A stretch of 64,000 bases of DNA, from NCBI GenBank assembly GCA_964605725.1, contig CAZSDQ010000002.1, forward strand, positions 5,600 to 69,599, in the 5' to 3' direction. This document shows positions 28,711-51,427 of the stretch, in pieces. The translations under genes and the position numbers were made by a program. Position 1 is the stretch's first letter, and the number at the start of each line of letters is the position of its first letter. The stretch is from an uncultured Candidatus Saccharibacteria bacterium (GTDB taxonomy: Bacteria > Patescibacteriota > WWE3 > UBA101185 > UBA10185). The notes below the pieces were generated by a model. The model had not been told where the DNA came from. It saw only the letters and a list, made by a program, of their open reading frames with translations, and ran no database searches.

Positions 28711-28712
28711 AT

Positions 28713-32881: not shown

Positions 32882-32946
32882 TTTAATTTACCCTAAACAT
32901 GATTTTTCAAGCAAACATTGATCAGGGCTGATATTATATTACTACT

Positions 32947-34848: not shown

Positions 34849-36024
34849 TTCGATATAAGCGTCGGAGACCCAACCTTCAACTGTTTCGGAAACTTTTATC
34901 TTAATCCAACCTGTTTCTTTATCCAGAACATCATAACTTTCTCCGGTATTCACCTTTGTTATTTCAGCTCCGTTGAGGCTCGGTGTTTCTCTTACTCTTA
35001 ACCAACCTAATGGGGTAGGTTTAACCTTGGCAATTTCCTTTTTTACAGTTTCAACTCCAACTGACGATAAACTTTCCAAAGCGCTCTTCGCCTCTTGCGA
35101 AATTCTCCCGCCCGAGCTTTTTAACCCTAAATACGCACCTCTTTTTAGATCCTTAAGTTTTGCAAAATCCTCTTGTTTTGTAATCGGGTTGCCGTTTGCA
35201 TCAAATAATCCGCCTTTATAATCAATAAAATAATCAAATAACTTATCTTTATTAATTCCTACATTGTCTATGTTTATACCCCTTGTAGTATTCCAGTAAA
35301 CTACCCCTTTTGCCCACGAAACGGTATCAGAAGTAATGTCCGGATTATCAGAGGATATGTTGTAAAGATTTGGAGAGTCTTTAAACATTTCTACTATTGG
35401 GTCGACGGGGAAGGGGAAAAGTTTAACCGAAACGTTTAAGGTATAACCTTTCTGTATATTTATGTTTGTTTCATTTGATTCATACCCGGCAAGCGCGACT
35501 TTTAAGTTATAGTCACCGCTTGTTATAGCTGCGGAAGAAAAAGGAGTAGTTCCTATCTTTGACCCATCAACATAGACATCAGCTCCGGAAGGTTCAGAAA
35601 CAATTCTAAGGGTATTATCAGAACCGTCTTTATCAAACCAAAGTTCTCTTCCTGATGAGAATAAATCTGATATTCCCAAATCTCTTTCTATTCCCACAGT
35701 ATATATGGTGTCTTTTTTGGAAGGTAAAAATTTTATTTCAGTCTGATATTGTCTTGTGTCGCTTCTAATTGCTATTACATTTGTTCCGGGCTTTATGTCC
35801 TTAGATTCAAAAGGAGTGTTTCCTACAACCTCGTTATTTATAAGTACTTGGGCCTCACCGCTTGCTACTCTTACTTCTAACGCAGATCTATTTCCTATTC
35901 CGGTAAGATTTCTAATTAATTCACCACCAAAAAATACTACTAAAGCCACACCTACAATTCCTAAAAAATACAGTAGGGCGGTTGAAAGTGGTTTCTCGTC
36001 ATTGCTTATTGTAGATACTGCCAT
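34837..36024 (-). CDS. membrane-anchored protein with PEGA-like beta domains and a C-terminal bacterial SH3 domain
   Basis: N-terminal TM helix and two PEGA-like segments (VYVDGSKIGTTPF, VLINNEVVGNTPF). C-terminal SH3b-like segment LRVRETPSLNGAEITKVNTGESYDVL..GWIKIKV. Confidence 0.5.
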   Translation of the reverse strand: MAVSTISNDEKPLSTALLYFLGIVGVALVVFFGGELIRNLTGIGNRSALEVRVASGEAQVLINNEVVGNTPFESKDIKPGTNVIAIRSDTRQYQTEIKFLPSKKDTIYTVGIERDLGISDLFSSGRELWFDKDGSDNTLRIVSEPSGADVYVDGSKIGTTPFSSAAITSGDYNLKVALAGYESNETNINIQKGYTLNVSVKLFPFPVDPIVEMFKDSPNLYNISSDNPDITSDTVSWAKGVVYWNTTRGINIDNVGINKDKLFDYFIDYKGGLFDANGNPITKQEDFAKLKDLKRGAYLGLKSSGGRISQEAKSALESLSSVGVETVKKEIAKVKPTPLGWLRVRETPSLNGAEITKVNTGESYDVLDKETGWIKIKVSETVEGWVSDAYIELSE

Positions 36025-36091
36025 ATGTACCTAAATTATCACGATGGTGGTAAAATATCAACATCGAGATTTCCTTTTAAAAGGCTTAAAA

Positions 36092-37912
36092 ATGACTACA
36101 AATGAACTAAAACAAAAATTTATAAAGTTTTTTCAGGAAAGGAATCACGCTTTAATCCCTTCTGCTTCACTTATCCCTGAAAACGACCCAACGGTGCTTT
36201 TTACTACTGCCGGTATGCACCCTTTGGTTCCTTATCTTTTAGGAGAAAATCACCCTTTAGGAAATAGACTTGTGAATGTTCAAAAGTGTTTAAGAACAGA
36301 TGATATTGATGAGGTTGGAGACGACACCCATGTTACGTTTTTTGAAATGCTCGGTAATTGGTCACTCGGTGATTACTGGAAAAAAGAATCGATTTCTTGG
36401 AGTTTTGATTTTTTAACTAAAGAACTTGGGATACCTGTTGAAAAGCTCGCGGTGACCTGTTTTGCAGGAGATGATAATGCGCCAAGGGACGAAGAGTCTG
36501 CAGAAATTTGGAGATCCGTTGGCATACCCGAAAATAGAATATTCTTTCTAGGAAAAATAGATAATTGGTGGGGACCGGTAGGTAGCTCGGGGCCTTGTGG
36601 TCCGGATACGGAAATTTTCTACTGGACTGGAGATGGCGAGCCTGAAAATCTTGATTCAGCTGAAGGCTCTAGTGATTGGGTAGAAATATGGAATAACGTA
36701 TTTATGCAATATGAAAAGACATCTGACGGTAAATTTTTACCCTTAAAACAAAAAAATGTGGATACAGGTATGGGTGTAGAAAGAACTACAGCAGTTTTAA
36801 ACAATAGAAAAAGTGTTTACGAAACGGATGCTTTTTTAGAAATTTATAAAAAAGTTAGTGAACTTTCGGATTCTTCAGATGAGATTGCTAAAAGAATAAT
36901 ATGTGATCATGTTAGAGCTTCTACATTTTTATTAGGAGATCAGCGATGTATTACACCTTCAAATGTTGATCAGGGATATGTTTTAAGAAAGCTTATAAGA
37001 AGAGCGATAAGAAAAGCCAAAAAAATAGGAATTAACGAACCTTTTCTTCTATCTTTGTCAAAAATTATTATTAATCAATATTCTAAAGATTATTCTGAAC
37101 TCAAAGAAAACCAGAATTTTATAGAAAAATACTTAGGCCTTGAGGAAGAAAAATTTAATAAAATACTAAACGAAGGTCAGAAAGAATCCTTTAAAGAAAT
37201 TGAAAAAATATCGGATGTAAATGAAATTGTTAATGTAGCAGGTATTGAAGTTTTAAGAGCTGCAAAAATATCATTTGATCTGTATCAATCCCAAGGTTAT
37301 CCAATGGAGATGTTTGTTGAAGATATGAAAGAAAAAAAGAATATCGAAGGAAGTATGTCTGAGAAAATTTGTGGAGACGTCGGAAGGTTAATTTCAACCC
37401 ACCAAAATGTTTCTAGAAAAGGTGCTGAAAGAAAGTTTAAAGGAGGTCTTTCTGATGATAGTGAAGAAGTTGTTAGATATCACACCGCCACTCACCTTTT
37501 AAATAAGGCTTTAAAAGAAGTTTTAGGAGACCATGTCAGACAAATTGGAAGCAATATCACTCCCGAAAGATTAAGGTTTGACTTTCCGAATAGTTCAAAA
37601 TTAACACAAGAAGAAATCGAAAGAGTTCAAAATATTGTGAATGATGTAGTAGATAAAGAACTTCCTGTAAATTTTCTTGTTTGCTCGCACGAAGATGCCG
37701 TAAGTTGCGGAGCAACTCATCTTGAAGGTGAAAAATATCCCGATCAAGTTAAGGTTTATTTTATCGGTGATAGTTTAGAATCTAGTTTTAGCAAAGAGTT
37801 TTGTGGAGGTCCCCATGTTAAAAATACTAAGGATATTGGGAAAATTGAGATTTATAAACAAGATAAAATAGGCGAGGGAAAGATGAGAGTTTACGCAAGA
37901 TTTAAGAGTTAA
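36092..37912 (+). CDS. alaS: alanyl-tRNA synthetase, short form lacking the C-terminal C-Ala domain
   Basis: Catalytic motifs FFQERNHALIPSASLIP.NDPTVLFTTAGM and FFEMLGNWSLGDY, plus editing-domain HTATHLL and CGGPHV. The start is set at MTTNEL (36092) by alignment to AlaRS N-termini; an in-frame ATG also exists at 36044. Confidence 0.8.
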   Translation: MTTNELKQKFIKFFQERNHALIPSASLIPENDPTVLFTTAGMHPLVPYLLGENHPLGNRLVNVQKCLRTDDIDEVGDDTHVTFFEMLGNWSLGDYWKKESISWSFDFLTKELGIPVEKLAVTCFAGDDNAPRDEESAEIWRSVGIPENRIFFLGKIDNWWGPVGSSGPCGPDTEIFYWTGDGEPENLDSAEGSSDWVEIWNNVFMQYEKTSDGKFLPLKQKNVDTGMGVERTTAVLNNRKSVYETDAFLEIYKKVSELSDSSDEIAKRIICDHVRASTFLLGDQRCITPSNVDQGYVLRKLIRRAIRKAKKIGINEPFLLSLSKIIINQYSKDYSELKENQNFIEKYLGLEEEKFNKILNEGQKESFKEIEKISDVNEIVNVAGIEVLRAAKISFDLYQSQGYPMEMFVEDMKEKKNIEGSMSEKICGDVGRLISTHQNVSRKGAERKFKGGLSDDSEEVVRYHTATHLLNKALKEVLGDHVRQIGSNITPERLRFDFPNSSKLTQEEIERVQNIVNDVVDKELPVNFLVCSHEDAVSCGATHLEGEKYPDQVKVYFIGDSLESSFSKEFCGGPHVKNTKDIGKIEIYKQDKIGEGKMRVYARFKS

Positions 37913-38004
37913 TATCGGGGGTTGAATTAACCCACTTGAAAGTGTTATATATTTGTTTGATTTACTAACTTACATAATTCATATTTAAAACAGGAGGTAT
38001 TTTT

Positions 38005-38307
38005 ATGACCAGTATAGAAAAAATAAAGCCTTTGTCAGATTATTTACTTATAGAGCCTCTTGAAAAAGAGACGGTTCTTCCTTCGGGAATTGTTGTTCCT
38101 GATACTGCTAAAGACAAACCTTCCGAAGGTAAGGTTTTGGCCGTAGGTGCTGGAAAAAAGGATGAAAAGGGAAACCTCATACCAGTACAAGTTTCAGTCG
38201 GTTCTGTTGTTATGTACAAAAAATGGGGCGGTACTGAAATAAAAGCAGAAGGAAAAGAACTTCTCTTAGTAAAAGAAGAGGATGTTATAGCAATAATTGA
38301 AGGTTAA
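38005..38307 (+). CDS. groES: co-chaperonin GroES
   Basis: Motifs IKPLSDYLLIEPLE and GKVLAVGAG; lies upstream of groEL. Confidence 0.9.
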   Translation: MTSIEKIKPLSDYLLIEPLEKETVLPSGIVVPDTAKDKPSEGKVLAVGAGKKDEKGNLIPVQVSVGSVVMYKKWGGTEIKAEGKELLLVKEEDVIAIIEG

Positions 38308-38329
38308 TTAATTTAAAGGAGAAATTATT

Positions 38330-39958
38330 ATGTCAGCAAAAGATATTATTTACGGAGAGAATGCTAGAGAAAAATTAAAAAAAGGTGTTGAAAAACTTGC
38401 CAAAGCTGTAGTAACAACCTTGGGTCCGAAGGGTGGTAATGTAGCCCTAGATAAAAGCTGGGGGACACCTCAAGTTGTAAATGACGGAGTGACAATTGCC
38501 AAAGAAATTGACCTAGAAGATAAGTTCGAAAATATGGGTGCACAGATTGTAAAGGAAGCTGCATCTAAAACTAATGATTTAGCAGGAGATGGAACCACAA
38601 CAGCCGTAGTGCTTGCCAGAGCCGTTGTTAATGAAGGTTTGAAAAATATTTCAGCAGGTACTAATGCTATGGTATTAAGAGGTGGTTTGGAAAAAGCTAC
38701 CAAGGCTTTAGTAGAAGAAATTGCTAAATTTGCCAAAAAGATTTCCAGCAAAGAAGAAAAAATCCAAGTTGCTACTATTTCAGCCCAAAACAAAGAAGTT
38801 GGAGAATTAATTGCCGAAGCCATGGAAAAAGTCGGTGAAGCAGGAGTTATTACGGTAGATGAATCAAAAGGTTCCAACATCGAATTGGAATACAAAGAAG
38901 GAATGCAGTTCGATAAAGGATATCTTTCACCCTATTTTGTTACTAATCCTGAAAAAATGGAATCTGTTTTGGAAAATCCTTACATTTTATTAACTGATGC
39001 CAAAATTTCCAATATGCAGGATATGCTGCCTTTGTTAGAAAGTTTGATGAAAGTGTCTAAAGATTTGGTAATCATATCTGATGATGTTGATGGGGAAGCT
39101 TTAGCTACATTGGTGGTCAATAAATTAAGAGGTGTATTAAATGTTTTGGCTATTAAAGCACCCGGTTTTGGAGATAACAGAAAAGCTTTACTTGAGGATA
39201 TTTCAATTCTTACCGGAGCTACTTTGATAAGCGAAGAAATGGGCAAAAAGATTAGTGGAGCTACTGTAGAAGATTTGGGAAGAGCTGACCGAGTTATATC
39301 AGACAAGGATAGCACCACTGTAGTTGGAGGTAAGGGCAACGAAGCAGAAATAAAAGATAGAGTAAAGATGATTCAAACCCAAATTGAAAATGAAACATCA
39401 ACTTACGAAAAAGAAAAACTTCAGGAAAGATTAGCTAAACTTAGTGGCGGGGTGGCAGTAGTTAAGGTCGGAGCCGCTACAGAAGCTGAGTTAAAAGAAC
39501 TAAAACTTAGAGTTGAGGATGCAGTTAACGCTACCAAAGCAGCTGTGGAAGAAGGTATAGTGCCAGGAGGCGGGATAGCCTTTTTAAGAGCAAGAAAAGT
39601 CTTAAAAGATTTACATTTTGAAGGTGACGAACAAGTGGGAGTAAGTATTCTTGAAAAAGCATTGGAGCAACCAATAAGAATGATTGTTAAAAATACCGGA
39701 GGAGATGACGGGAAAGTCATGGCTGAAATTGAAAGAAGGGCAAAAGAAGAAAACAATGAAAACATTGGTTACGACGTGTTAAAAATGGATTATGTCGATA
39801 TGGTTGAATCAGGAATTATTGATCCCGCTAAGGTCACCAGAAGTGCCTTACAGAATGCAGTATCTGCGGCAACTATGATAATAACAACAGAATGCCTGGT
39901 TACAGAGTTGCCTAAAAAAGATGAAAAAGCCCCGATGCAAATGCCCGAGGATTACTAG
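38330..39958 (+). CDS. groEL: chaperonin GroEL
   Basis: [22 protein letters not shown] and [10 protein letters not shown] motifs. 542 aa. Confidence 0.95.
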
Positions 39959-39986
39959 AAATTTCGTAATTATCAAAAAAGCAAAA

Positions 39987-40021
39987 AAAGGGGGAGGGGG
40001 CGAAGCCCCCTCCCCCTTTTT
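39987..40021. terminator. strong GC-rich bidirectional rho-independent terminator
   Basis: aaaaagGGGGAGGGGGCgaaGCCCCCTCCCCCttttt lies between convergent groEL (+) and a nucleotidyltransferase gene (-). Confidence 0.6.
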
Positions 40022-40030
40022 CCCATTTAT

Positions 40031-41041
40031 TTATTTTTCCCCCTTTGATTCTGTTTGTTTAATTTGTTTTGTTATTTTTTTGGTATCTTTCCTTTTTCTG
40101 GTAATATCTTTACTTCCAACTTCAATTTGCGGATTTTTGATTTTATCTCTTTTTTCCAAATCCTTTTCTAATTTTTTTAATGTGTCTTTGTATATTTTTT
40201 TATATCCAGACAAAATCCTCTTACTTGAATCATTTTTATTAAAATGTATTAACTTCTTGTTTACAGTTTCAGTGGTAATATCTTTTTTCATGTGCAGTAT
40301 TTGTACTTTCATTGCCAAAGATTCGATGAAATTCATAATAAAATTTTTCCTCAACTTTTTCTTTTTAACATCTTTTGAAAAATCGATTATAAAATTTGGG
40401 TAATATTTACCTACCCACCTATTTGCATTGATGAAATTTAAATATATCTCGTCTCTCCATAAATAAGGTTTCATCGATATTATGTTTTGAGCTACATAAA
40501 GATTTCTTTTCTTTTTAGGCCAGCCCATATTACCTTCTTCTATGAAAATGTTGGGGCAGATATCTCTTTTACTCTTGTCTGAAGGAAGTTGCCCAACTAT
40601 TTTAAGAACTATAAAAACCAACCCTCTACATATCCATAATCTATTACTTTCGGTAATAAACAACAAATCTATGTCTGCCTTTTTATCACTGTTTTGGTTA
40701 GCAACAGATCCTGTCAGAGCAATCATTTTTATCCATGGGATTCTAGACAATATTTTCAAATAAGATTTATTTTTTTCAATAATTTCAGAAGTATTTTTTA
40801 ACCTTTTTTCTCGATCTATATTTTTAACTCCGGAAATTATGTATCTTCCTTTTGTTTTTCTTACAATCTTTGCATTTACAAGTTCTTCTAAGTTTTTTTT
40901 AATTAATTTATCTGAAAAATTATTTTGCGAAATTAAATTTTTGATAATCTCATCGATACTTAAAGGAAATCCGAAAAAACTACTGTACGAGAGAGTTTTA
41001 ATTACGGAAATCTTACAAGGATTAATGCTGTTTTTCTTCAT
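40031..41041 (-). CDS. nucleotidyltransferase (Pol-beta superfamily) domain protein with a lysine-rich C-terminal tail
   Basis: Core motif ALTGSVANQNSDKKADIDLLFITE (GS...DxD). N-terminal wHTH-like region and a K-rich, low-complexity C-terminus. Confidence 0.5.
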   Translation of the reverse strand: MKKNSINPCKISVIKTLSYSSFFGFPLSIDEIIKNLISQNNFSDKLIKKNLEELVNAKIVRKTKGRYIISGVKNIDREKRLKNTSEIIEKNKSYLKILSRIPWIKMIALTGSVANQNSDKKADIDLLFITESNRLWICRGLVFIVLKIVGQLPSDKSKRDICPNIFIEEGNMGWPKKKRNLYVAQNIISMKPYLWRDEIYLNFINANRWVGKYYPNFIIDFSKDVKKKKLRKNFIMNFIESLAMKVQILHMKKDITTETVNKKLIHFNKNDSSKRILSGYKKIYKDTLKKLEKDLEKRDKIKNPQIEVGSKDITRKRKDTKKITKQIKQTESKGEK

Positions 41042-41047
41042 TTTAAT

Positions 41048-41446
41048 TTAAATTGTATCAAGTACTTCGTTCACTATTTTGTCGGCTATATAATTCTTCT
41101 CTCTAGGTACGTGGTTATATTTAACTGATTCAAAATCTTTCTCGATCATTTTTGCTTCGTTAAAGAAGGTTTTCATTCGGGGTTCTTTTACTTTGAATTT
41201 TCCATTAAGCTGACTGACCACCAGCAGGCTGTCTATATAAAAAACAATCTCACTTCCTTTTAAATCTTTTGCCGCTTTCAATCCTTCTATGACAGCCTTA
41301 TATTCAGCCTCATTATTTGTTGATTTACCAATAAATTTTCCAATCTCTTTGATAACTTTCTTTTTTTCATCCAACACCACTACTCCAATAGCTCCGGGAC
41401 CGGGGTTACCTCTTGCTCCTCCGTCTGTGTGAATAAATAGTTTCAT
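41048..41446 (-). CDS. rnhA: ribonuclease HI
   Basis: HTDGGARGNPGPGAIGVV, TNNEAEYKAVIEGL and YIDSLLVV motifs carry the conserved D/E/D residues. Confidence 0.8.
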   Translation of the reverse strand: MKLFIHTDGGARGNPGPGAIGVVVLDEKKKVIKEIGKFIGKSTNNEAEYKAVIEGLKAAKDLKGSEIVFYIDSLLVVSQLNGKFKVKEPRMKTFFNEAKMIEKDFESVKYNHVPREKNYIADKIVNEVLDTI

Positions 41447-41450
41447 ATAA

Positions 41451-42107
41451 TTAGTCCTTAAAATATTCTTTGAGGCTGATTATGAAAATACCCAAAGAAA
41501 AACCAACAAGAATTCCCGCAACACTTGTAATCAAGAGTGGTTTGTAAAATTGTTTAATAAAAGGTTCTTCAGAGATTTTTACTACCGTAAGTTTCCCATC
41601 TCCATCTCTATTTATTTCCTTAGAGGTTTTAATCAGTATGTCTGCTATATTTTCCCAAATTGTTTTAGCCCTGTTTAAATCTTTGTCTTTAAGAGCAATA
41701 TTAATTATTTGAGGGCCGGTTTTCTTTACAGACATCGATTTACTAATTTTTCTTATATTGTAACCGTCCTCTGGTAAATCTAATTTATTTAAAACTTGCT
41801 TTTTAACATCTTCGCTTTCTGCTAGGGCCACTACTGAGTTAGTATACGTTGACGCTGTCTGTTGAGAGTAGTAACCCTCATATGTAAAAAATGACTCAGA
41901 ATTATCTTCTTTTCTCGTTATATAAAAAGAACCTGAAGCAGTGTAATTAGAGGGTAGGAAATGAATAAGAACACCTGTTATTAACCCGATTAAAGCACAT
42001 AAAGATAGTACTTGTCGGTTTTTCCTTATTTTTTTAAATATTTCTCTAAATTCCATAAGTCTAATTATACCAGCAAAAAGGTTAATAAAATAAGCGATAA
42101 ACCGCAA
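41451..42107 (-). CDS. Wzz-like polysaccharide chain-length determinant family protein
   Basis: N-terminal TM helix followed by a periplasmic region (SGSFYITRKED...VVALAESEDVKKQVLNKLDL) and a C-terminal TM helix. Resemblance is to the Wzz N-terminal domain only. Confidence 0.4.
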   Translation of the reverse strand: MRFIAYFINLFAGIIRLMEFREIFKKIRKNRQVLSLCALIGLITGVLIHFLPSNYTASGSFYITRKEDNSESFFTYEGYYSQQTASTYTNSVVALAESEDVKKQVLNKLDLPEDGYNIRKISKSMSVKKTGPQIINIALKDKDLNRAKTIWENIADILIKTSKEINRDGDGKLTVVKISEEPFIKQFYKPLLITSVAGILVGFSLGIFIISLKEYFKD

Positions 42108-42181
42108 AAAAGTGATGAAGTTAAGTATTAAATTATGTATACTTTAGTAAATTTATTAAAATTTAAAACATTACTGCCCAG

Positions 42182-45100
42182 ATGCCAAAACAACAAACTA
42201 TAACTAAATCTTCTCTCATTCCCACGGTGTTGATATCCGGAGGTGCAGGTTTTATTGGATCTCACTTAGCAGAATATCTTCTTCAAAACAAGTCCAGGGT
42301 AGTTGTTTTAGATAATTTTAAAACCGGTAAGGATATACACGTAAAGCATTTGTTATCAGATAAAAATTTTGCTCTTTATGATGTTGATATAAATGAAGGT
42401 ATTCCTTCGGAGATTCAAAGTGTTGACTATATTTTTCATTTGGCCGGATTGGAGGAATACTTTTATAGTAAGGATTATTTAAATCTGGAATCTCTTTTTA
42501 CCAATTCTTTAGGAACAAAAAATCTTCTAGATCTAGCAAAAAAATCTTCTGCTAAATTTTTACTTGCTTCCACGATAGATATTTATCAAGGAAGGTTGTC
42601 CCAAGTCGATCTTGGAAAATATTTCGGTTCTTCCGGCGGTGAGGAAAATAGGTTTAGTTTGCTCGAGGCAAAAAGATTTGCTGAAGCCGTAGTTTGGGAG
42701 TATTTCAAAAGACATAATTTAGATGCCCGTATTGTAAGACTACCGGAAGTTTACGGTCCAAGAATGGACCTTTCTTCGAGTGGTTTTTTAGGTGGTTATA
42801 TTAAAAATGTATTAGATGGCTCCTCAATTGATATTTACGGTGAAGGCGAGGAAAAAGAATTTTATTTGTATATCTCTGATGTGATTTCAGGGTTAGTTAA
42901 GGCTCAGTTTAGCGAGGGTACTTCAGGAGATATTTACTCGCTTGTACCTGAAAACCCCGTTTCATCTTTGGAAACCGCCTATCTAGTAAGAAGCCTGGCG
43001 GATTCTAAGCTTTCAATACAATTTAAAAAGGGTTTGTCTGAAATAAGAGAGCCGTTGAGTATACCCGAGAGTTTTAATGTTAAATCTATTGGATGGAAGC
43101 CTAAGGTTCAACTAAAAGAGGGTGTAATGAAAACACTGGAGTTTTTTGACTATTCTCCGAATACAAATGCTTTTAAGCCGGCAAAATATTTAGAGCAAAA
43201 ACTTAAAAAAGTTGAGTCAGTGCCTGAAAGCATAGTTTCTTTACAGGGAGTTAAAATATCAAACCTTCCTAAAAATGATGAGTCCGAAAGATTTTTTAAT
43301 AATACTTTTAAAGAGACTGCCGAAAATCAAATTGAACCAAACAATGCTTTGCCTGAGAAAAAAATAAAAAATAAATTTAAATTTTCTTTATTTAATAAGT
43401 CTTCAAAAAAATCAAATATAAAGGATTTTAGTAATAAGGTTAGAACCGACCTAGGTTATTTTAACGCTATATTGGGTATTGTAATCTCGGCGCTTTTGGT
43501 TTTTATCGGAGTTCCCTCTTTGAGCACTTATATTAATATCAAAAAAGGTTACTCCTCTTTAAATAAAGTAAAACAAAATATTATGTCTCTGGACTCTGCT
43601 AATTTAAGCTCAGATACCCTCTCTGCATATAACGGTTTTAAGAACGGAAAATCCTCACTAAAGAGAATTAGATGGGTATTTAAGATTATCGGTAAGGATG
43701 AAAATTATGTAACTTATGACAAGCTTTTAAGTTCGTTAATGTTTTTTTCAAAAGCAGGTAATCTCGGTTCAGATGCTTTGAAACCTGTTGAATCTATGTT
43801 GGAGACGTTGAAGCCGGGAAGTACATTGACTTTGGACGCTACTCTGTTTGATAGGGCAAAGATTGGGATTGTCGGAGCTAGAGATTATATTAGGATGGCT
43901 GAAGCTGATTTAGTTGGTATTGATAACTCTCTAATTCCTGAAAAATACAAAAATTATCTTGATGAGTATCGAGGAGTACTCAGCCAGTCTCAAGAATTTG
44001 CAGATTCCGCATCTGTTGTTATGAGCGGGCTTCCACAACTTTTAGGTATGGAAGGTGAAAAAAAATACATTATTTGGTTTCAGAATTCCAACGAAATAAG
44101 ACCAACCGGTGGATTTATCGGTTCTTACGCTACAGTGAGTATTGATTCGGGAAAGATTAAAAATATACTTATTGATGATATATATAACCCCGATGGTCAG
44201 ATTGATGTTAGAAATATTAAAACTACCCCTCCAGAACCTATTAAAAAATTTCTTAATGAGGAAGTATTATATCTAAGAAATTCCAATTGGGATCCCGACT
44301 TTACCAAATCAGCCAAGGTTTTTGATGATATTTACTTTAAAATAACAGGTGAAAGTGTAGATGGTTACATAGCTCTTGATTTGAAATTTGTTGAGAGTCT
44401 TCTTAGAGTAACAGGGCCGGTATTTTTAGCCTCGTATAACGAAGATATTAATTCAGAAAATCTTGACGAAAGAGCTCAATATTATAGTGGGTTTGATTAT
44501 AAAGAGGGTTCGACAGATAAAAAATCCTTTTTGACAATTCTTGGAGGGAAGCTTCTTGAAAAAATATTTTCTTTGAAAAAAGAGGATTTTCCTAAACTTG
44601 TAACAGAGCTGGGGAGGTCGCTTGAAGAGAGACACCTTCAGATTTCTCTTAATAATAATCAAATAAATTCTCTGTTGTCTGAAAATAAGTGGGATGGTAG
44701 TTTAGTCGATACCGAAGGGGATTATCTATATGTGGTTAATGCGAACCTCGGTGGTACCAAATCTAATTATTACGTCGAAAATAAAATGACCTACGAAATT
44801 AATTCTATGACCAGAGATGGTTTATTAAGAGCAAATTTGTATTTGGATTATAAAAATAATGCTGAAAACGATGCTTGGCCCGGCGGTCCTTATACTGATT
44901 ATGTTAGAGTTTTAGTAAAAGACGGTTCTAAGCTGACTGGGGCTAAAATAATTAATAATACAGGTGAGGAAACGGACATATTTAAGGATGTAGTAGTTTC
45001 GAAGGTTGGTGTTTACTCTTCTTTTGAAACTAGTTTCAAGTTGCTTCCAAAAGAATCAATTAGGTTGGTTATTAGTTACGATCTTCCCCAGAAAGCATCG

Positions 45101-45301
45101 ATGACTAAAGAGGGTAGTTCATACAGCTTGTATTGGCAAAAACAGCCCGGAACCAGTAAGGACAATTATTCTTTTATTTTTAACCCTCCTTTTGGTTCAG
45201 TCACTCAAAACTTATCAAATAATTTACAAGTTGATGGTACATCAATAAAATCCTCGGGAATTCTGATAAAAGATATGGAGTACTACATAAGTTTTAAATA
45301 A
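42182..45301 (+). CDS. giant fusion protein: N-terminal NAD-dependent epimerase/dehydratase domain plus a TM segment and an extracellular DUF4012 domain
   Basis: Rossmann motif VLISGGAGFIGSHLAEYLL and SDR-like YxxxK region in the first ~330 aa, then a TM helix near aa 430. DUF4012 signature IIWFQNSNEIRPTGGFIGSYATVSIDSGKIKNILIDDIYNPDGQ. Confidence 0.65.
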   Translation: MPKQQTITKSSLIPTVLISGGAGFIGSHLAEYLLQNKSRVVVLDNFKTGKDIHVKHLLSDKNFALYDVDINEGIPSEIQSVDYIFHLAGLEEYFYSKDYLNLESLFTNSLGTKNLLDLAKKSSAKFLLASTIDIYQGRLSQVDLGKYFGSSGGEENRFSLLEAKRFAEAVVWEYFKRHNLDARIVRLPEVYGPRMDLSSSGFLGGYIKNVLDGSSIDIYGEGEEKEFYLYISDVISGLVKAQFSEGTSGDIYSLVPENPVSSLETAYLVRSLADSKLSIQFKKGLSEIREPLSIPESFNVKSIGWKPKVQLKEGVMKTLEFFDYSPNTNAFKPAKYLEQKLKKVESVPESIVSLQGVKISNLPKNDESERFFNNTFKETAENQIEPNNALPEKKIKNKFKFSLFNKSSKKSNIKDFSNKVRTDLGYFNAILGIVISALLVFIGVPSLSTYINIKKGYSSLNKVKQNIMSLDSANLSSDTLSAYNGFKNGKSSLKRIRWVFKIIGKDENYVTYDKLLSSLMFFSKAGNLGSDALKPVESMLETLKPGSTLTLDATLFDRAKIGIVGARDYIRMAEADLVGIDNSLIPEKYKNYLDEYRGVLSQSQEFADSASVVMSGLPQLLGMEGEKKYIIWFQNSNEIRPTGGFIGSYATVSIDSGKIKNILIDDIYNPDGQIDVRNIKTTPPEPIKKFLNEEVLYLRNSNWDPDFTKSAKVFDDIYFKITGESVDGYIALDLKFVESLLRVTGPVFLASYNEDINSENLDERAQYYSGFDYKEGSTDKKSFLTILGGKLLEKIFSLKKEDFPKLVTELGRSLEERHLQISLNNNQINSLLSENKWDGSLVDTEGDYLYVVNANLGGTKSNYYVENKMTYEINSMTRDGLLRANLYLDYKNNAENDAWPGGPYTDYVRVLVKDGSKLTGAKIINNTGEETDIFKDVVVSKVGVYSSFETSFKLLPKESIRLVISYDLPQKASMTKEGSSYSLYWQKQPGTSKDNYSFIFNPPFGSVTQNLSNNLQVDGTSIKSSGILIKDMEYYISFK

Positions 45302-45308
45302 ATTTTTA

Positions 45309-47057
45309 TTGCTTAATGTTTTGTTGAGCAATATAATTACCTTAATGGCTTCAGCTTACATGCCCCAATCCAATAGACAACATCCGGTTCCTCAGAATAT
45401 TATGGATGTTGAGTTTAAACTTATAGGTGAGTTGACGATGCGTCAGTTTTCTTATCTATTAGTATTTGGTTTAGCTTCTTACCTAAGTCTGAAAGGAATA
45501 CCGGGCCTATTTAGAGTACCCACAGCCTTGTTTTTTGGTTTACTTGCTTTGGGTTTAGCTTTTGTTCCTGTTGGGGAAAGGGGTTTGGACGAGTGGATAG
45601 TAAATTTTTTTAAATCAATTAATTCTCCTACTCAAAGAAAATGGTTGAAAGAGCCTCAATTACCCACGGCGTTTTTGTATGATAACTTGGCTATTGTTCA
45701 GCACGAGATGATTACACTTGCTCCTACTTCCAGTCGTAGAAAACTTGAAGAGTATTTAAAATTTAAATCTTATGAGAGTGACGAGGATCCCCTCGATATT
45801 CCTGAAAAATCCTATGTTATGAAACTAAAACAAATTTATCAGGATACTTACAGCCCCGAACTAACTGGCGGTGTTGGAGTACTTGTGGATGAGCCCGAAG
45901 TATCGGTAGGTCCAGAAATCCCAAATATCCCGGGTGTTCCTGTTATTCCGGAGGATGCAGAACCCAAATATAATTTAGAAAATGAAGAACCTAATAAAGA
46001 AACAGATAAGTTAACTTCGGAATATAAAGCATTTTCTAGTACTGAAGATTTTGGTAAGGAAGTTTTAAAAGAAGCTAAGGTAAGCGAAGAGTTTAAAACC
46101 GAGCAAACACCGCCGGTTCCCCCGATTTTACAAAAATCAAAATTTGTTGATACCGGTGTTAACAGACAAAGGATGAGAAGGGGGAGTGTTTCCGCAAAAA
46201 CTAGTATGCGAAATATTTCTCAACCACCAAGCGAATTGGATATGTATTCATACAGTTCAGTTACACCTGATATGCATTCAGGAAGAAAGTTTACTAATTT
46301 GGTACCTTCAGAAGGTGAGATAGTGTTGCCAATCAGGGGTGAGAGAGTGTTGAGTACTTCCGTAGAGCAGTCAATCGATAGCGATATTCAGGAAAAAGCC
46401 AGAAAACTCGAGGAACTTTTACAAAAAATTAGTCAGGAGGAGGGCGTGGTAATTAAAAAACCCCCTGTCCAAAAACCTGTTGCAACTCCAGTAGATAGGA
46501 TAGCGGAGGAAATGGCAGAGAAACTTAAAAAACAAAATGAAGAGCTAAACATTGAAATTAAGAGATTAAAAGATCAAATACAGAAAGGGAAATCTTCTTC
46601 AGTAGAAACCAGTGAGCAGGAAAATCTTCTTCAAAAACTTGAATCTCAAAAAGGCGATATATCATCCAGTTATTCCGAATTAAGAAAGCAAGTTCAGGAT
46701 TTACAAATGAAGTTGGATGAAAAAGTTAAAGTTTCTACGGGCGAGGAGTTTTTAAATAAGGTAAAAAAACAACTTCCTGTTTTGACTGACACACCTAATG
46801 TTCTGACAGGTGTGGTAAGGGATGCAGAAGGAAAAAATTTAGGTGACACACTTCTGATAGTAAAGAACAGCAGAGGAGATACTATTAGAGCATTGAAAAC
46901 AAATTCTTTGGGTCAATTTGTTGTATCTACACCTCTTCAGAACGGAACCTATACTGTAGAAGTAAGTCCGGTTAACAAAACTAATTTAACATTTGCTATA
47001 ATTCCTATTGAAGTAAAAGGAGAAGTAATACCTACATTAGATGTGATAGGAAAATAA
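45309..47057 (+). CDS. PrgI/VirB3-like membrane protein with a long coiled-coil extension and a C-terminal carboxypeptidase-regulatory-like beta domain
   Basis: N-terminus LTMRQFSYLLVFGLASYL...ALFFGLLALGLAFVPVGERGLDEWIVNFF...QRKW resembles PrgI-family T4SS components. A coiled-coil follows, then the C-terminal GVVRDAEGKNLGDTLLIV...GTYTVEVS segment. Likely real starts are internal Mets at ~45360 or 45402. Confidence 0.45.
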   Translation: MLNVLLSNIITLMASAYMPQSNRQHPVPQNIMDVEFKLIGELTMRQFSYLLVFGLASYLSLKGIPGLFRVPTALFFGLLALGLAFVPVGERGLDEWIVNFFKSINSPTQRKWLKEPQLPTAFLYDNLAIVQHEMITLAPTSSRRKLEEYLKFKSYESDEDPLDIPEKSYVMKLKQIYQDTYSPELTGGVGVLVDEPEVSVGPEIPNIPGVPVIPEDAEPKYNLENEEPNKETDKLTSEYKAFSSTEDFGKEVLKEAKVSEEFKTEQTPPVPPILQKSKFVDTGVNRQRMRRGSVSAKTSMRNISQPPSELDMYSYSSVTPDMHSGRKFTNLVPSEGEIVLPIRGERVLSTSVEQSIDSDIQEKARKLEELLQKISQEEGVVIKKPPVQKPVATPVDRIAEEMAEKLKKQNEELNIEIKRLKDQIQKGKSSSVETSEQENLLQKLESQKGDISSSYSELRKQVQDLQMKLDEKVKVSTGEEFLNKVKKQLPVLTDTPNVLTGVVRDAEGKNLGDTLLIVKNSRGDTIRALKTNSLGQFVVSTPLQNGTYTVEVSPVNKTNLTFAIIPIEVKGEVIPTLDVIGK

Positions 47058-47059
47058 AT

Positions 47060-47767
47060 ATGTCTGCCCAAGAGATTATATCTACAACTCAAGATCATTT
47101 AGACATCTTTGATATTAAGGATAATTTCGCTGTATTAAAAAACGGAACAGTTTGTGCAGTCATACAAACTACTGCAGTAAATTTTGACCTGCTTTCAGAA
47201 ATTGAACAGGACGCGATAATTGCGGCTTTTTCAATGCTATTAAATTCCATTACATTTCCATTACAAGTAGTCATCAGATCAAGAAAATTGGATATATCAA
47301 AATACGTAGAAAAAGTTAGAAAAGTAGAATCCAAAATAATAGACCCCCTCCTAAAACATCAGGCTGAGTCATACAGAAAATTTGTTCAAGATGTAATTAA
47401 GGTTAATGAAGTTTTAGATAAGAAATTTTATGTTGTAGTTTCGACAACTAACGTAGTTGTAACTCAAAAAGGAGGCGGTGCTTTTGATTGGATGTTAAAG
47501 CTATCTGGGATGCAAAATAAAAGAGTTGGTGTTGTTAATGTTGAAAAAATATTGCAGGACGGACGTACCCAACTTAGCCCTAGAATTGACCATGTAATTA
47601 GAGAATTTGGAAGAATAGGAATTAAATGCAAACAACTAACCACACAAGAATTAGTGGAACTTTATTTTGATATCTATAACCCAAGTAATATTCACGGTCA
47701 GAGAATAAGAACCAATTTAGATGATTATAAGACTGCCATTGTAAACCCGGCAATCATAGAGGAATAG
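47060..47767 (+). CDS. VirB4 N-terminal-domain-like protein (no ATPase domain)
   Basis: IFDIKDNFAVLKNGTVCAVIQTTAVNFDLLSEIEQDAIIAAFSMLLNSITFPLQVVIRS parallels the N-domain of Gram-positive VirB4 homologs and of the downstream ORF. Translationally coupled to its neighbours. Confidence 0.4.
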   Translation: MSAQEIISTTQDHLDIFDIKDNFAVLKNGTVCAVIQTTAVNFDLLSEIEQDAIIAAFSMLLNSITFPLQVVIRSRKLDISKYVEKVRKVESKIIDPLLKHQAESYRKFVQDVIKVNEVLDKKFYVVVSTTNVVVTQKGGGAFDWMLKLSGMQNKRVGVVNVEKILQDGRTQLSPRIDHVIREFGRIGIKCKQLTTQELVELYFDIYNPSNIHGQRIRTNLDDYKTAIVNPAIIEE

Positions 47768-47770
47768 AAT

Positions 47771-50317
47771 ATGGCGTTAAATATTTTTGATTTATTTAAA
47801 AAAAGTACAAAAAAAACTGTAAGTAACACGGGCGACACGGCTGAGGTGGAGAAAACTCCACCTGAAATATTGGCTGAAGGAATGATGAATGTTAGAGATA
47901 TAATCGCTCCTTCGGCTATTGAAGTTGACTTCAACGATATAAGAATCGGCGATATGTATTACAGAACTTTTTTTGTTTCCGGATACCCGAGATTTGTCGG
48001 TGCAAACTGGCTCTCTCCGGTTATAAATTTTGATCACACTCTTTTGATTTCAATGTTTTATTATCCGGTAAAATCAAAAGTAATTTTAGATGATTTAAGA
48101 AAAAAAATAACTGAATTGGAAGCAACAACAATGACTAACAGGGAGAAGGGAAAAATTTCTGACCCTGTGGTAGAGGCGGCGCTTGAGGATGCAACTGCCT
48201 TACAAGAACAGTTAGTCAAGGGAGTTGAAAAGTATTTTCAATTTTCTTTTTACATTACTATTCCGGCATACGAGAAAGAAGAGTTAGATAATGTTAGTTC
48301 TAAGCTCGAATCTCTTCTTGCATCTTTATTGTTGATATCAAAAACTTCTGCCTTGCAAATGGAGGATGCATTTAGATCTTGTATACCTACTGGGATAGAC
48401 AGATTGATGGTTACAAGAAATATGGATACGACAAGTTTAGCAACTACGTTTCCTTTTACGTCATCTGATTTAACTATGGAAGAAGGGATAATGTATGGAA
48501 TAAATAAACATAATGGATCACTAGTAATATTTGACCGTTTCTCGATGGAAAACGCTAATTCAGTTGTATTTGCTAAATCCGGTGCTGGAAAATCTTACTT
48601 CGTGAAATTGGAGGCTTTAAGACACTTAGTATTTGGTGCGCACGTGATGATAATTGATCCGGAAGAAGAGTACTATAATCTTTGCGAAGTTGTTGGCGGA
48701 AATTATATTGGTTTTTCGGCTAATTCTAAACATAAAATAAACCCATTTGATCTTTCCGGAATTGCTACTGAAGGGGAGAACGAATTGGGTCAGAAACTTA
48801 TTTCCTTGGTAACTTTACTAAAATTAATGATGGGTCAGCTAAATTCAACCGAGGAGGCGATTCTCGACCGAGCTTTAATTGAGACTTACAGAATGAAGGG
48901 TATCACCACAGATCCTGATACACAAAGTAGTAAAGAACCACCTGTAATGGAGGATTTATACAAGGTTTTATTGGGTGGTAGTGAGCCTGAATCTAAAACT
49001 ATGGCTGATAGATTAGAGAAATTCATTAAAGGTTCAATGGCAGGGATTTTTGATTCGCAGTCAAATATAAATCTGGAAAGTAGTATGACGGTGTTTTCAA
49101 CTAAGAACCTTGAGGATGCATTAAGACCAATTGCTTTTTATATGATATTGGATTTCGTCTGGACTACTATTAGGAGGGATTTAAGGAAAAGAATATTGAT
49201 AGTAGAGGAGGCTTGGTATTTAATGCAAAATCCCGATAGTGCAAGATTTATATACGGTATAGCTAAAAGAGCCAGAAAATATTATTTAGGTTTGACTACT
49301 ATATCTCAGGATGTAGATGACTTTTTGACATCCGAATATGGGAAAGCTGTAGTTACAAACTCATCTATTCAGATGTTATTTAAACAGCATCCCGCAGCCA
49401 TAGATAAAGTTGTTGAAACATTCTATCTTTCTGAAGGAGAGAAAAGATTTTTACTATCAGCGGGTGTTGGGGAGGGTCTGTTTTTCGCTGGATCCAATCA
49501 CGTAGCTATAAAGGTTATGGCTTCGGAATCAGAACATAAGCTTATAACTACAAATCCCGAGGAAGTTTTAAAATTAAAAGAAGAAAGACGACTTGAAGAG
49601 AAAAAAGGACAGTTGGATTTGGCAAGGAAAGAGGAACTTAGAATGGAGTATAAACCTTATAAAGCTCCTGAACCGATGGACAAGTACACAACATTTGATG
49701 AATTAGGGGAAACTAAACAGGAATTTAAATCTATCAAAAATTATGAGAATGAAAATATAAATTCTGAAGTTAATAAAACGGTACCAATTGAAACTAAACC
49801 TGTACTGGAGCCAAAAAGTGATTTAACAATAAAATCCAAAATTGTTGACAAAGTTGTTCCGGAGCCTCAGAAAACTGTTCAGAAACCTATGAACGAGACT
49901 AATCTTCAAAAAGATCAGAAGCCTATTGTTATAGATTTGAATAAAAAAAATCAGACTTTTGATGCTGGAATAACTAACAATCCCGCACCTACTTTTAAAT
50001 CTGCACCTGCTCCTGAAAATGTCTCTGTTTCTAAGCCTACTCCAGCGCCCACACTTACACCTTCACCTGTTCCTACACCTACGCAGGTTATTAATCAAAA
50101 TAATCAACAGTCTCAACCATCTGCACAAAAACCTAAAAATATCCTCGACAATAAAGTCATTGAGTTAAGGAAAAGGATGTTACAGGACGAGGATAGTTTC
50201 TTAGATAACGCTCCATCTGCAAATGAGATTATGGACTCTGTAGAGGAGATGAAAAGAAACAAACCAATGATTAATAACCAGCCGCCGATTCAGAATAACC
50301 CAACAATCCAACAATAA
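47771..50317 (+). CDS. VirB4/TraE/CagE-like type IV secretion/conjugation ATPase with a Pro/Thr/Gln-rich C-terminal tail
   Basis: VirB4 N-domain pattern (IAPSAIEVDFNDIRIGDMYYRTFFVSGYPRFVGANWLSPV), Walker A VVFAKSGAGKSYF and Walker B ILIVEEAWYLM (DEAW-type). The last ~200 aa are low-complexity (APAPTFKSAPAPENV...PTPAPTLTPSPVPTPTQ). Confidence 0.7.
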   Translation: MALNIFDLFKKSTKKTVSNTGDTAEVEKTPPEILAEGMMNVRDIIAPSAIEVDFNDIRIGDMYYRTFFVSGYPRFVGANWLSPVINFDHTLLISMFYYPVKSKVILDDLRKKITELEATTMTNREKGKISDPVVEAALEDATALQEQLVKGVEKYFQFSFYITIPAYEKEELDNVSSKLESLLASLLLISKTSALQMEDAFRSCIPTGIDRLMVTRNMDTTSLATTFPFTSSDLTMEEGIMYGINKHNGSLVIFDRFSMENANSVVFAKSGAGKSYFVKLEALRHLVFGAHVMIIDPEEEYYNLCEVVGGNYIGFSANSKHKINPFDLSGIATEGENELGQKLISLVTLLKLMMGQLNSTEEAILDRALIETYRMKGITTDPDTQSSKEPPVMEDLYKVLLGGSEPESKTMADRLEKFIKGSMAGIFDSQSNINLESSMTVFSTKNLEDALRPIAFYMILDFVWTTIRRDLRKRILIVEEAWYLMQNPDSARFIYGIAKRARKYYLGLTTISQDVDDFLTSEYGKAVVTNSSIQMLFKQHPAAIDKVVETFYLSEGEKRFLLSAGVGEGLFFAGSNHVAIKVMASESEHKLITTNPEEVLKLKEERRLEEKKGQLDLARKEELRMEYKPYKAPEPMDKYTTFDELGETKQEFKSIKNYENENINSEVNKTVPIETKPVLEPKSDLTIKSKIVDKVVPEPQKTVQKPMNETNLQKDQKPIVIDLNKKNQTFDAGITNNPAPTFKSAPAPENVSVSKPTPAPTLTPSPVPTPTQVINQNNQQSQPSAQKPKNILDNKVIELRKRMLQDEDSFLDNAPSANEIMDSVEEMKRNKPMINNQPPIQNNPTIQQ

Positions 50318-50320
50318 AGA

Positions 50321-51427
50321 CTAGATTTGCATCGGCATAATAATATGGATGAAGTCTTTAATCCCGTCCGGTACAAATGTACAGGGTGATAAGTTGCCGT
50401 TAGATTTAAATTCAATATTTTCTGATTTCACATTTCCCAAGAAATCTAAAAGATACTTCGAGTTGAATGCAATTTCTACAAGCTCCCCTTCAACTTCAGC
50501 ATTTAGATTGCTTTCGTGCTGGCCAGTCTCTTCTGAAAGTGATGTGATTTTAATTTTTCCTTCAGGATCAAATCTAACTTTGATAGTACTGTTCCCCTCC
50601 TTTGCAAAGATGTCAGTTAACCTAACCGCCTCTGTAAATTCCAAAGTTGAAAAATTTGCTTTGACTACGTGTTCAGTCGGTATTATCTTTTTATAATCAG
50701 GATAGTCTCCATCAAGCACTCTAGTGGCAATTAAAGTATCTTCCGCTCTAAACAACCCTAAGTTTTCATCTTGGTTTAATGTAAACTCAATTGGTTCCGA
50801 AGAAGTTGAAAATATTTTAGCTACCTCAAGGAGTGTTTTGGCCGGTATTACAACCTTAAAGTCGCTAATCTCACCTTTAATTTTAATATTTTTTTCCGAT
50901 AGTCTAAAACCATCCGTTGATGTTATTGTTAGCTTCTCTTTCGAGTAGTCCATATAAATTCCTGTAAATATTGGTCTGCTGGTATCTACTCCGGAGGCAA
51001 AAGCTACAACCCCAACCACACTGTTTAATAATCCGGGATCTATAGATAAACCTTTAGCATTTTTAGGAAAAGACGGTAATTCAGGAAAATCTTTTGCACT
51101 GCTTCCGTTAAATTTGGATTTTGTAGATTTTGAATTTACAACGAGTATCTCATCTTTGACAGTTGCGTTAATGGTACCGGGCGACAGATTAGATATAAAA
51201 TCTTTTAATAATCTTGCCGGAACTGTAATAGAACCTTCCTCTTCAATGGATGCACCTACATATGTAGTTATAGCGGTTTCCAAATTTGTCGCCGACAGTT
51301 TTATTCTTCCCTTATCGGTTTCTATTAAAACATTTGATAAAATAGGCAAAGAACTTTTAGCCGGTATGGCGTGCATTATGGTCTGTAGACCTTTAGAAAG
51401 ATTTTCCTGCAGGAAAGAAAATTTCAT
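50321..51427 (-). CDS. dnaN: DNA polymerase III beta subunit (sliding clamp)
   Basis: MKFSFLQENLSKGLQTI...LPILSNVLIE...LSATNLE N-terminus and a three-domain length of 368 aa. Confidence 0.85.
   Translation of the reverse strand: MKFSFLQENLSKGLQTIMHAIPAKSSLPILSNVLIETDKGRIKLSATNLETAITTYVGASIEEEGSITVPARLLKDFISNLSPGTINATVKDEILVVNSKSTKSKFNGSSAKDFPELPSFPKNAKGLSIDPGLLNSVVGVVAFASGVDTSRPIFTGIYMDYSKEKLTITSTDGFRLSEKNIKIKGEISDFKVVIPAKTLLEVAKIFSTSSEPIEFTLNQDENLGLFRAEDTLIATRVLDGDYPDYKKIIPTEHVVKANFSTLEFTEAVRLTDIFAKEGNSTIKVRFDPEGKIKITSLSEETGQHESNLNAEVEGELVEIAFNSKYLLDFLGNVKSENIEFKSNGNLSPCTFVPDGIKDFIHIIMPMQI

Follow-up and report, generated by a model that had tools for sequence, protein, structure and literature searches.

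A putative membrane-anchored, split VirB4 motor of a patescibacterial type IV secretion system, encoded beside dnaN in a WWE3 genome

What is the purpose of three adjacent genes of a type IV secretion system (T4SS) on a bacterial chromosome, when none of the usual partners is encoded around them? This question is raised by a module on the plus strand of a 64-kb stretch of contig CAZSDQ010000002.1 (hereafter the window, in whose positions all coordinates are given unless a related locus is named), in which an extended PrgI/VirB3-like membrane protein (gene A, 45309..47057, 582 aa from the TTG at 45309), a TrsD-family protein of 235 aa (gene B, 47060..47767) and a VirB4-like ATPase of 848 aa (gene C, 47771..50317) follow each other with gaps of 2 nt (A-B) and 3 nt (B-C). 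We read this locus as the membrane-anchored, split-VirB4 motor of a patescibacterial T4SS, which would act together with distally encoded partners in the transfer of macromolecules at contact with a host cell, and we assign to this reading a probability of roughly 0.8. It builds directly on the identities of the genes, the division of VirB4 over two of them, their coupling, their chromosomal synteny, the purifying constraint on them and the lack of mobile-element hallmarks. An earlier reading made from the sequence alone (hereafter the sequence-only reading) had already recognised three co-directional, translationally coupled genes here, and the open reading frames (ORFs), the short gaps and a ribosome-binding-like GAGGAA bear this out; its account of how the VirB4 protein is distributed over the genes has to be revised.

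A VirB4 ATPase divided over two genes

Protein C scored 362.1 bits against NCBIfam NF045971 (conju_CD1110, cut-off 325) and 97.6 bits against Pfam P-loop_TraG (cut-off 25.8), also matched Pfam AAA_10, and over aa 232-593 (48464..49549) aligned to the VirB4 C-terminal ATPase domain of PDB 4AG5/4AG6 (phmmer, E 2.4e-50). Its Walker A motif reads AKSGAGKS (aa 268-275, 48572-48595; looked at in this window alone) and includes the GAGKS noted earlier; its Walker B motif is EEAW (aa 479-482, 49205-49216, within (LIV)EEAW at aa 476-482) where DEAW had been given, and is kept in the form D/E-E-A-W in 78 of 79 related VirB4s. A complete N-terminal domain is lacking, as the alignments begin only at position 183 of the 752 positions of CD1110 (and run to 735) and at position 265 of the 894 of NCBIfam VirB4_plasma. 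C is thus not the full VirB4 it had been taken for, and retains the second part of the N-terminal domain (aa 37-231, 47879..48463), delimited by the start of the CD1110 alignment and that of the 4AG5 match.

The first part is provided by B, which matched N-terminal positions of VirB4 models alone, as the sequence-only reading had proposed: positions 112-239 of VirB4_plasma (E 2e-11) and positions 19-217 of TIGR00929, both under the curated cut-offs. On VirB4_plasma the stretch matched by C (265-893) is consecutive to that of B and does not overlap it. Our local Pfam library, which does not include PF26593, gave no match for B; precomputed annotation assigns PF26593 ('TraC-like') to B as well as to every one of its homologs. 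A search with a profile of B in 1.84 billion representative proteins matched 2,495 clusters, and in the 150 matches listed the similarity starts at or near the N-terminus of the protein. The same profile matched no C-type ORF in related loci and nothing among PDB sequences (best E 5.4, to an unrelated protein).

Two proteins carry both parts in a single chain. A fused protein of 787 aa (P0319) contains a B-like part and a P-loop domain; its aa 1-204 align to B with 40% identity, and its aa 213-774 are 63% identical to C aa 45-606. The fused VirB4 of Carboxydocella plasmid pCCELLA01 (CTH_10029, 754 aa) aligns to B over aa 8-194 (E 5e-22) and to C aa 43-605 over aa 186-753 (E 2e-79). Since C is without the first ~180 VirB4 residues, and B and C lie end to end on single full-length VirB4s, VirB4 is split here, and B, of the TrsD family, is its separated N-terminal segment and not the paralog that had been suggested. 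The split is read from the consecutive model positions, from the two fused proteins and from a structural hint for B, to which we return below; by the same token 'TrsD' is a name for the first part of a split VirB4.

A genome collection was scanned with a TrsD alignment, which yielded 80 loci, including one in the complete WWE3 genome CP006914; their ORFs were called and then searched with custom profiles. In each of the 79 loci that have both genes, virB4 is immediately preceded by B, and when 28 close WWE3 homologs of B are aligned, 82 columns are invariant. In the window, a Shine-Dalgarno-like hexamer for C, GAGGAA (47759..47764, plus strand), lies inside the final codons of B, 6 nt before the ATG of C, and this arrangement is one of translational coupling. 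The tight junction recurs in the 79 related loci (typically -14 to +9 nt, ORF start calls allowed for), and its form GAGGA-TAA-n-ATG is conserved in WWE3 loci. B and C share a reading frame here, parted by a TAG plus one codon, and we considered a programmed read-through or a recent nonsense mutation; both are rejected by the frame relation of the two genes across the 79 loci (16:31:32), from which the in-frame position in this locus can be attributed to chance.

The junction shows one further peculiarity. The conserved C-terminus of B (..AIVNPAIIEE, 47741-47767) and aa 45-53 of C (IIAPSAIEV, 47903-47929) align to one shared segment of the fused Carboxydocella VirB4, TPGVIEI (aa 189-195; gene at 11446-13710 of locus L085). 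This overlap may be a small duplicated junction left from gene fission, or it may be due to chance.

At its other end, C carries a low-complexity tail (aa 606-848, 49586..50314), which is rich in Lys, Pro, Asn and Glu and not, as previously described, in Pro, Thr and Gln. Related VirB4s range from ~590 to 930 aa, and the tail, variable or missing in many of them, aligns in none but the closest WWE3 loci. The likeliest interpretation is that of a disordered appendage specific to the lineage.

The extended PrgI/VirB3-like protein

The start of A is more likely at a later ATG than at the TTG at 45309, which we judge too early because homologs and independent gene calls begin at ATG 45345 (570 aa) or ATG 45360 (565 aa). 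Pfam PrgI (PF12666) matched aa 26-104 with 29.9 bits, a small margin over the gathering score of 27, and precomputed PF12666 is present on nearly all of 120 homologs among the matches listed. The match covers a hairpin of two transmembrane (TM) helices (aa 47-88, 45447..45572) seen in the hydropathy profile and in an AlphaFold2 (AF2) model (helices 44-63 and 69-85, predicted local distance difference test (pLDDT) ~80-85), so the PrgI/VirB3-like two-TM segment of the sequence-only reading is supported, and its assignments to PrgI, to the VirB4 N-terminus and to the VirB4 family all hold in profile searches.

The layout of the remainder was drawn from an alignment of 29 homologs together with the AF2 model. 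The hairpin is followed by a very highly conserved helical juxtamembrane region (aa 89-177, 45573..45839) with the invariant columns ERGLDEW..ITLAPTSSRRKLEEYL..DPLDIPE, which, by analogy with the VirB3-VirB4 contact in R388 (PMC12857230), may be the docking surface for TrsD and VirB4. Next come a Glu/Pro/Ser-rich linker predicted to be disordered (aa 178-316, 45840..46256; pLDDT 30-45), of variable length and unalignable, and a motif of invariant or near-invariant columns found in all WWE3 loci, ITPDMHSGRKFxNLxPSxGExxLPIRGERVL (aa 317-348, 46257..46352). A predicted coiled-coil region (aa 351-473, 46359..46727) is modelled as helices 351-378, 394-429 and 435-473 with pLDDT 80-90 and has weak matches to SMC and other coiled-coil proteins. 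The protein ends in a beta-sandwich of the transthyretin/CarboxypepD_reg/CnaB-like type (aa 495-582, 46791..47054; pLDDT ~85), for which Foldseek returned the carboxypeptidase D TTL domain and CnaB2 from the PDB (E ~1e-4) and CarboxypepD_reg matched aa 499-569 with 26.9 bits, under its cut-off of 32.3; the profile of this domain matches in all complete related loci. The extension had previously been described as ~450 aa of coiled coil and a carboxypeptidase-regulatory-like domain. Both parts are present, but the extension measures ~480 residues, of which ~165 are predicted by AF2 to be disordered, ~120 to form coiled coil and ~85 the beta-sandwich.

Classical VirB3 proteins are of 10-15 kDa with short cytoplasmic ends (PMC12857230). 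A shares with them the two-TM hairpin and the position of its gene beside virB4, directly upstream of trsD-virB4, but at 565-582 aa, with ~480 residues past the hairpin, it is about five times too long. The extension also occurs on its own. In four Woykebacteria-like loci (L064, 7974-9981; L069, 7203-9977; L071, 6489-9316; L082, 2818-4961) ORF calls give it a gene of its own, translationally coupled to a preceding PrgI gene of 174-268 aa, the PrgI-like part of these proteins being ~170-200 aa, and a further locus (L070, 211-3258) has an extension-only ORF with no PrgI gene detectable there. All five stand-alone proteins (500-1015 aa) lack a signal peptide and an N-terminal TM helix, and a LPIRGEK-like core of the motif described above occurs in stand-alone extension proteins as well.

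On which side of the membrane the extension resides is a point on which the evidence is divided. A cytoplasmic location is favoured by the topology of VirB3, by a weak positive-inside count (three K/R before TM1, two in the loop, five after TM2) and by the stand-alone forms without signal peptide; the Glu/Pro/Ser linker, the fast evolution and the CnaB-like, adhesin-like fold are reminiscent of surface proteins. The module could possibly be a cytoplasmic platform under the split VirB4, replacing a coupling protein in the recruitment of substrates, or, also possibly, a stalk or adhesin on the cell surface, with the machine itself as its exporter. It is conceivable, although we consider it doubtful, that this VirB3-attached module of ~480 aa represents in either of these placements an undescribed, dedicated subunit of the WWE3/Microgenomatia T4SS, and that the locus may encode a simpler T4SS-derived transporter than any known. 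Common to WWE3 and Microgenomatia-like lineages, the VirB3 extension offers a testable handle for distinguishing the recruitment of cargo in the cytoplasm from contact with a host.

A conserved chromosomal locus and its relation to known systems

The named homologs belong to candidate division WWE3 and Patescibacteria, in line with the earlier attribution to the Candidate Phyla Radiation (CPR). The order of a PrgI protein with C-terminal beta domain, TrsD, VirB4 and then a convergent dnaN or recF-dnaN was found in every locus of sufficient length, and these loci span WWE3 and Woyke-, Woese- and Curtissbacteria-like genomes; the recurrence of the order and of the convergent dnaN in the complete loci among the 80 answers favourably the question of synteny raised by the sequence-only reading. 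Many of the metagenome-assembled genome records that carry the locus (loci L004-L083) bear titles such as 'uncultured Candidatus Saccharibacteria', 'Gammaproteobacteria', 'Pseudomonadales' or 'Nanoarchaeia archaeon', which look like taxonomic mislabels.

The neighbours of the module named by the sequence-only reading were recovered with Pfam. Upstream and outside the module lies a gene on the plus strand (42182..45301) for a protein of 1039 aa with an NAD-epimerase/dehydratase domain, a TM segment and DUF4012. Most of the closer WWE3 loci (L001-L036) have this gene before A; in more divergent ones it is missing or elsewhere. On the other side, dnaN (sliding clamp; 50321..51427, minus strand) forms a conserved boundary of the module, being found downstream of virB4 in virtually all complete related loci, and is part of a minus-strand series rnpA-yidD-yidC-jag-dnaN. 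The stops of the convergent virB4 (C) and dnaN are 3 nt apart (50315-50323), which leaves no space for intergenic terminators; a promoter and terminator scan of 41-52 kb gave counts at or below shuffled expectation.

Compared with CP006914, the window shows identities of 82% for the VirB4 core, 74% for TrsD, 60% for DnaN and 41% for protein A, and with Microgenomatia-like loci ~58-67% for the VirB4 core, 40-49% for TrsD and 25-40% for DnaN. Over nearly all WWE3 loci B is 60-87% identical. By these comparisons VirB4 and TrsD are more constrained than the replication clamp DnaN, and constraint of this degree excludes both a relic in decay and mobile DNA of recent acquisition. The VirB4 core is ~58-93% identical to Patescibacteria homologs and ~29-38% to the best plasmid homologs from Bacillota and Actinomycetota, to which B is 20-32% identical. 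To judge from the shared gene order, the even GC content and the lack of flanking repeats, the locus is chromosomal and would have been inherited vertically.

The system is the already published T4SS of Patescibacteria, of which the present locus is a further example from WWE3 and thus a rediscovery. A survey of 3,035 Patescibacteria genomes recovered VirB4 from 2,417 of them, and these VirB4s grouped as one monophyletic clade inside MPF-FATA (Quinonero-Coronel et al., 2025, Microb Genom, PMC12102498). Among the components associated with VirB4, TrsD was the commonest, with 2,272 homologs of which 1,664 adjoin virB4, followed by 1,649 homologs of PrgI/VirB3; relaxases were almost absent, and the genes were located near dnaA, dnaN, rnpA or rpmH (PMC12102498). 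Ca. Southlakia epibionticum requires PrgI, TrsD and VirB6 as essential genes (Wang et al., 2023, cited in PMC12102498); the patescibacterial T4SS is one of a small number of systems demonstrated to be indispensable to the epibiotic way of life of ultra-small bacteria. Our locus resembles this system in the adjacency of VirB3/PrgI, TrsD and VirB4, in its chromosomal location near dnaN/rnpA/rpmH-type genes, in the lack of a relaxase and in its monoderm, MPF-FATA-like flavour, the best curated model being the Firmicute CD1110 and the best plasmid matches coming from Bacillota and Actinomycetota. It is therefore most likely a chromosomal, Gram-positive-type MPF-FATA derivative, here in WWE3. It differs in that the saccharibacterial locus has VirB6, an array of VirB2-like pilins and hydrolases by virB4, none of which is found near the WWE3 virB4. 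WWE3 is absent by name from the text and tables of that survey, and in the NCBI taxonomy it lies outside the 'Patescibacteria group' from which the genomes of the survey were taken; the coiled-coil/beta-sandwich VirB3 extension of ~480 aa is likewise unmentioned there. We did not find in that literature the long VirB3 extension, the three-gene layout of WWE3 or an explicit statement that TrsD and a short VirB4 are colinear with one VirB4.

Similar arrangements are known from conjugative plasmids. The trs operon of the Staphylococcus plasmids pGO1/pSK41 (MPF-FATA) encodes, in this order, a small VirB3-like TrsC, TrsD and a VirB4 shortened at its N-terminus (TrsE), and remote homology of TrsD to the VirB4 N-terminus has been reported (PMC12102498); unlike our locus, pGO1 is conjugative and has a relaxase, a coupling protein and ~13 trs genes, and its VirB3-like protein is small. 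The best matches outside the CPR are proteins of Carboxydocella pCCELLA01, with both parts in one chain, and of the Pontibacillus sp. ALD_SL1 plasmid NZ_CP062975, where adjacent genes encode a TrsD-like protein (32% identity to B) and a split VirB4 (37% to C). The Pontibacillus cluster differs from the window by a pilin-like protein, a 779-aa hypothetical protein and a 1050-aa peptidoglycan endopeptidase around virB4, and by a 116-aa hypothetical protein, of VirB3 size, upstream of the TrsD-like gene. In R388, TrwM (VirB3) and TrwK (VirB4) (PDB 7O41, 8RTB/8RTD) are the structural reference for a two-helix VirB3 that keeps the N-domain of VirB4 at the membrane, and VirB3 binds VirB4 1:1 (PMC12857230); this is a Gram-negative conjugative system, with VirB4 as one polypeptide and a VirB3 of ~100 aa.

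Proposed role, missing partners and genomic neighbourhood

We propose that A would insert into the membrane as a two-helix hairpin, its juxtamembrane helices keeping the ATPase at the membrane. B and C, made in coupled translation, would associate non-covalently into a complete VirB4, with an N-domain composed of B and C aa 37-231 and the ATPase of C aa 232-593, and the rebuilt VirB4 would oligomerise, hexamers of dimers being expected by analogy. ATP hydrolysis would then power the assembly of an envelope-spanning apparatus, transport via this apparatus, or both, and a VirB6-like channel, a wall hydrolase and VirB2-like pilins would be encoded outside the window. The machine would be non-conjugative, and its most likely role would be an exchange of macromolecules at the site of contact with a host cell. 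We lean tentatively, at somewhat less than even odds, towards an import of host-derived nucleic acid or other macromolecules, in preference to the export of effectors or to a role limited to pilus biogenesis. The published view is that of a repurposed, non-conjugative and possibly importing system (PMC12102498), with which the guess made from the sequence alone, an apparatus repurposed for uptake or secretion, agrees; host-macromolecule import and effector delivery have only been hypothesised (PMC11665869; PMC12857230).

Several points weigh against this proposal. B scored only 34.3 bits against the TrsD/TraD model NCBIfam NF041427 (cut-off 200, E 2e-8, model positions 17-98), and its AF2 model, built from the 28-sequence alignment, is poor (pLDDT 57). 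A Foldseek search with this model gave R388 TrwK/VirB4 for all of the top 11 PDB matches, with E ~0.01 and a TM-score of 0.36, so that the structural comparison to the VirB4 N-domain suggested by the sequence-only reading ranked the expected protein first and yields but a weak hint. The window contains no dnaA and no turn in the cumulative GC skew; a replication origin is hence not evident within the 64 kb. No VirB6, VirB8, pilin, wall hydrolase or coupling protein was detected in the window or within 10 kb in ~55 WWE3 loci. VirB6 is scarce in the neighbouring class Microgenomatia (PMC12102498), and the function of the Saccharibacteria T4SS has been called 'completely unknown' (PMC11665869).

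The lack of local partners is also what gives room to the strongest of the alternatives, according to which the WWE3 trio is the whole translocase, a self-sufficient machine without VirB6 channel or pilus, in which the VirB3 extension replaces a coupling protein, VirB8 or an adhesin. Only these three genes, between housekeeping flanks, are conserved together in the ~55 WWE3 loci, and among the ~60 ORFs of the window none matched a relaxase, VirD4/TcpA, VirB6, VirB8, VirB1 or pilin family, which extends to the entire window the earlier statement that coupling protein, relaxase, VirB6 and VirB8 are absent within 10 kb. Genes for VirB6 and VirB2-like pilins, which in the Patescibacteria T4SS are widespread near virB4 though not universal there, are thus lacking in the window, and the other WWE3 loci keep the same housekeeping flanks. 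WWE3 therewith has the barest local layout of the system, three genes between a surface-glycan cluster and dnaN.

A richer layout is seen in Curtissbacteria-like loci, where virB4 is followed by a giant protein of 1,100-1,280 aa, polytopic in three of four cases (5-8 predicted TM helices), and by one or two small bitopic proteins (L060, 14650-18914; L077, 13183-17556; L081, 7981-11990; L083, 12691-17407). Peptidoglycan-hydrolase domains are clear in two of the four giants, Peptidase_M23 in L077 and Amidase_3 with SLT in L083, and the giant resembles the hydrolase that follows virB4 in Pontibacillus and Saccharibacteria; these proteins are candidates for fused VirB6/VirB1-like and for VirB8-like parts. 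Neither the window nor any of the WWE3 loci yielded a homolog of the polytopic/hydrolase genes, which speaks for a minimal machine, as do the ~480 extra, conserved residues of A, so unlike a VirB3 of 10-15 kDa, and the reported scarcity of VirB6 in Microgenomatia. Against it, no channel is known that is made of a two-helix hairpin, and a VirB6-type subunit is required in every characterised T4SS (PMC12857230). In addition, the 64 kb represent ~7% of a genome of roughly 0.9 Mb, so that the negative results on partners hold for the window and the loci only, and in other Patescibacteria partners are often dispersed (as for the type IV coupling protein, T4CP) or too divergent for hidden Markov models (PMC12102498). 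We therefore hold a self-sufficient trio to be unlikely, and prefer a split-VirB4 motor with distal partners. An ORF of the window at 3890-5872 was considered as a hidden VirB6 and rejected, as it has no Pfam or NCBIfam family and is not similar to the Curtissbacteria-like polytopic proteins. This ORF lies after rpoD and encodes 660 aa, with an acidic, low-complexity N-terminal half and four predicted TM helices in the C-terminal third.

Much less probable is an origin as ordinary mobile DNA, that is, as a fragment or remnant of an integrated conjugative element, either an integrative and conjugative element (ICE) or one derived from a plasmid. The closest non-CPR relatives of B and C do lie on plasmids of Bacillota and Actinomycetota, many of them typed as conjugative, the NCBIfam names are those of 'conjugal transfer' families, and a tyrosine recombinase gene is found 22 kb upstream, near tRNA genes. 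Yet all complete WWE3 loci have the module between the glycan cluster and dnaN-jag-yidC-rnpA, dnaN or recF-dnaN adjoins in most loci of sister lineages, and VirB4 and TrsD outdo DnaN in conservation over the same genome pairs, while C is only 30-37% and B 20-32% identical to plasmid homologs against ~58-93% for C within Patescibacteria. GC content ranges over ~0.30-0.38 in the window and is ~0.35 over the module, with no local shift, and no flanking direct or inverted repeats were found around the module beyond short AT-rich chance matches. Together with the lack of a relaxase and a T4CP in the window, synteny and composition effectively refute an ICE fragment, and agree with the earlier description of the module as T4SS-derived and not a classical conjugative element. 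Least probable of all is a decaying relic, in which a nonsense mutation would have broken VirB4 and the genes would be heading for loss: the in-frame TAG and the long low-complexity tail of C may evoke it, but it is effectively refuted by conservation, given the mixed frame relation, a split that is ancient, universal in the sampled loci and present in Firmicute plasmids too, the conserved Shine-Dalgarno sequence and start codon of C, the high identity of B across WWE3 and the intact ATPase motifs.

The remaining genes scanned in the window are devoted to housekeeping or envelope biosynthesis (dnaG, rpoD, ftsH, alaS, groES/EL, miaA/B, ftsEX and the glycan cluster). The latter, a surface-glycan/envelope cluster directly upstream of the module (27166-45301), comprises GT2-like and GT4 genes, a UbiA-type prenyltransferase, a Wzy_C/O-antigen-ligase-like protein, a PEGA+SH3 protein and a Wzz-like protein, and its last gene is that of the 1039-aa epimerase-TM-DUF4012 protein. 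Rfam detected four tRNAs only in the whole window. Three tRNA genes, at 21303-21378, 24178-24251 and 24336-24411, are a tRNA-Ile with anticodon UAU and two adjacent tRNA(CAU) genes; the UAU anticodon is unusual in bacteria, most of which use a lysidine-modified CAU tRNA. Between these tRNA genes sit a PIN-domain gene and a XerC/D-like tyrosine recombinase. Finally, the region 7487-15473 is a fermentative energy cluster, which encodes a 956-aa protein with an ADP-forming acetyl-CoA synthetase-like part fused to FAD/NAD-binding oxidoreductase domains, a 2-oxoacid:ferredoxin oxidoreductase, the large and small subunits of a NiFe-hydrogenase and a HycI-like maturation protease.

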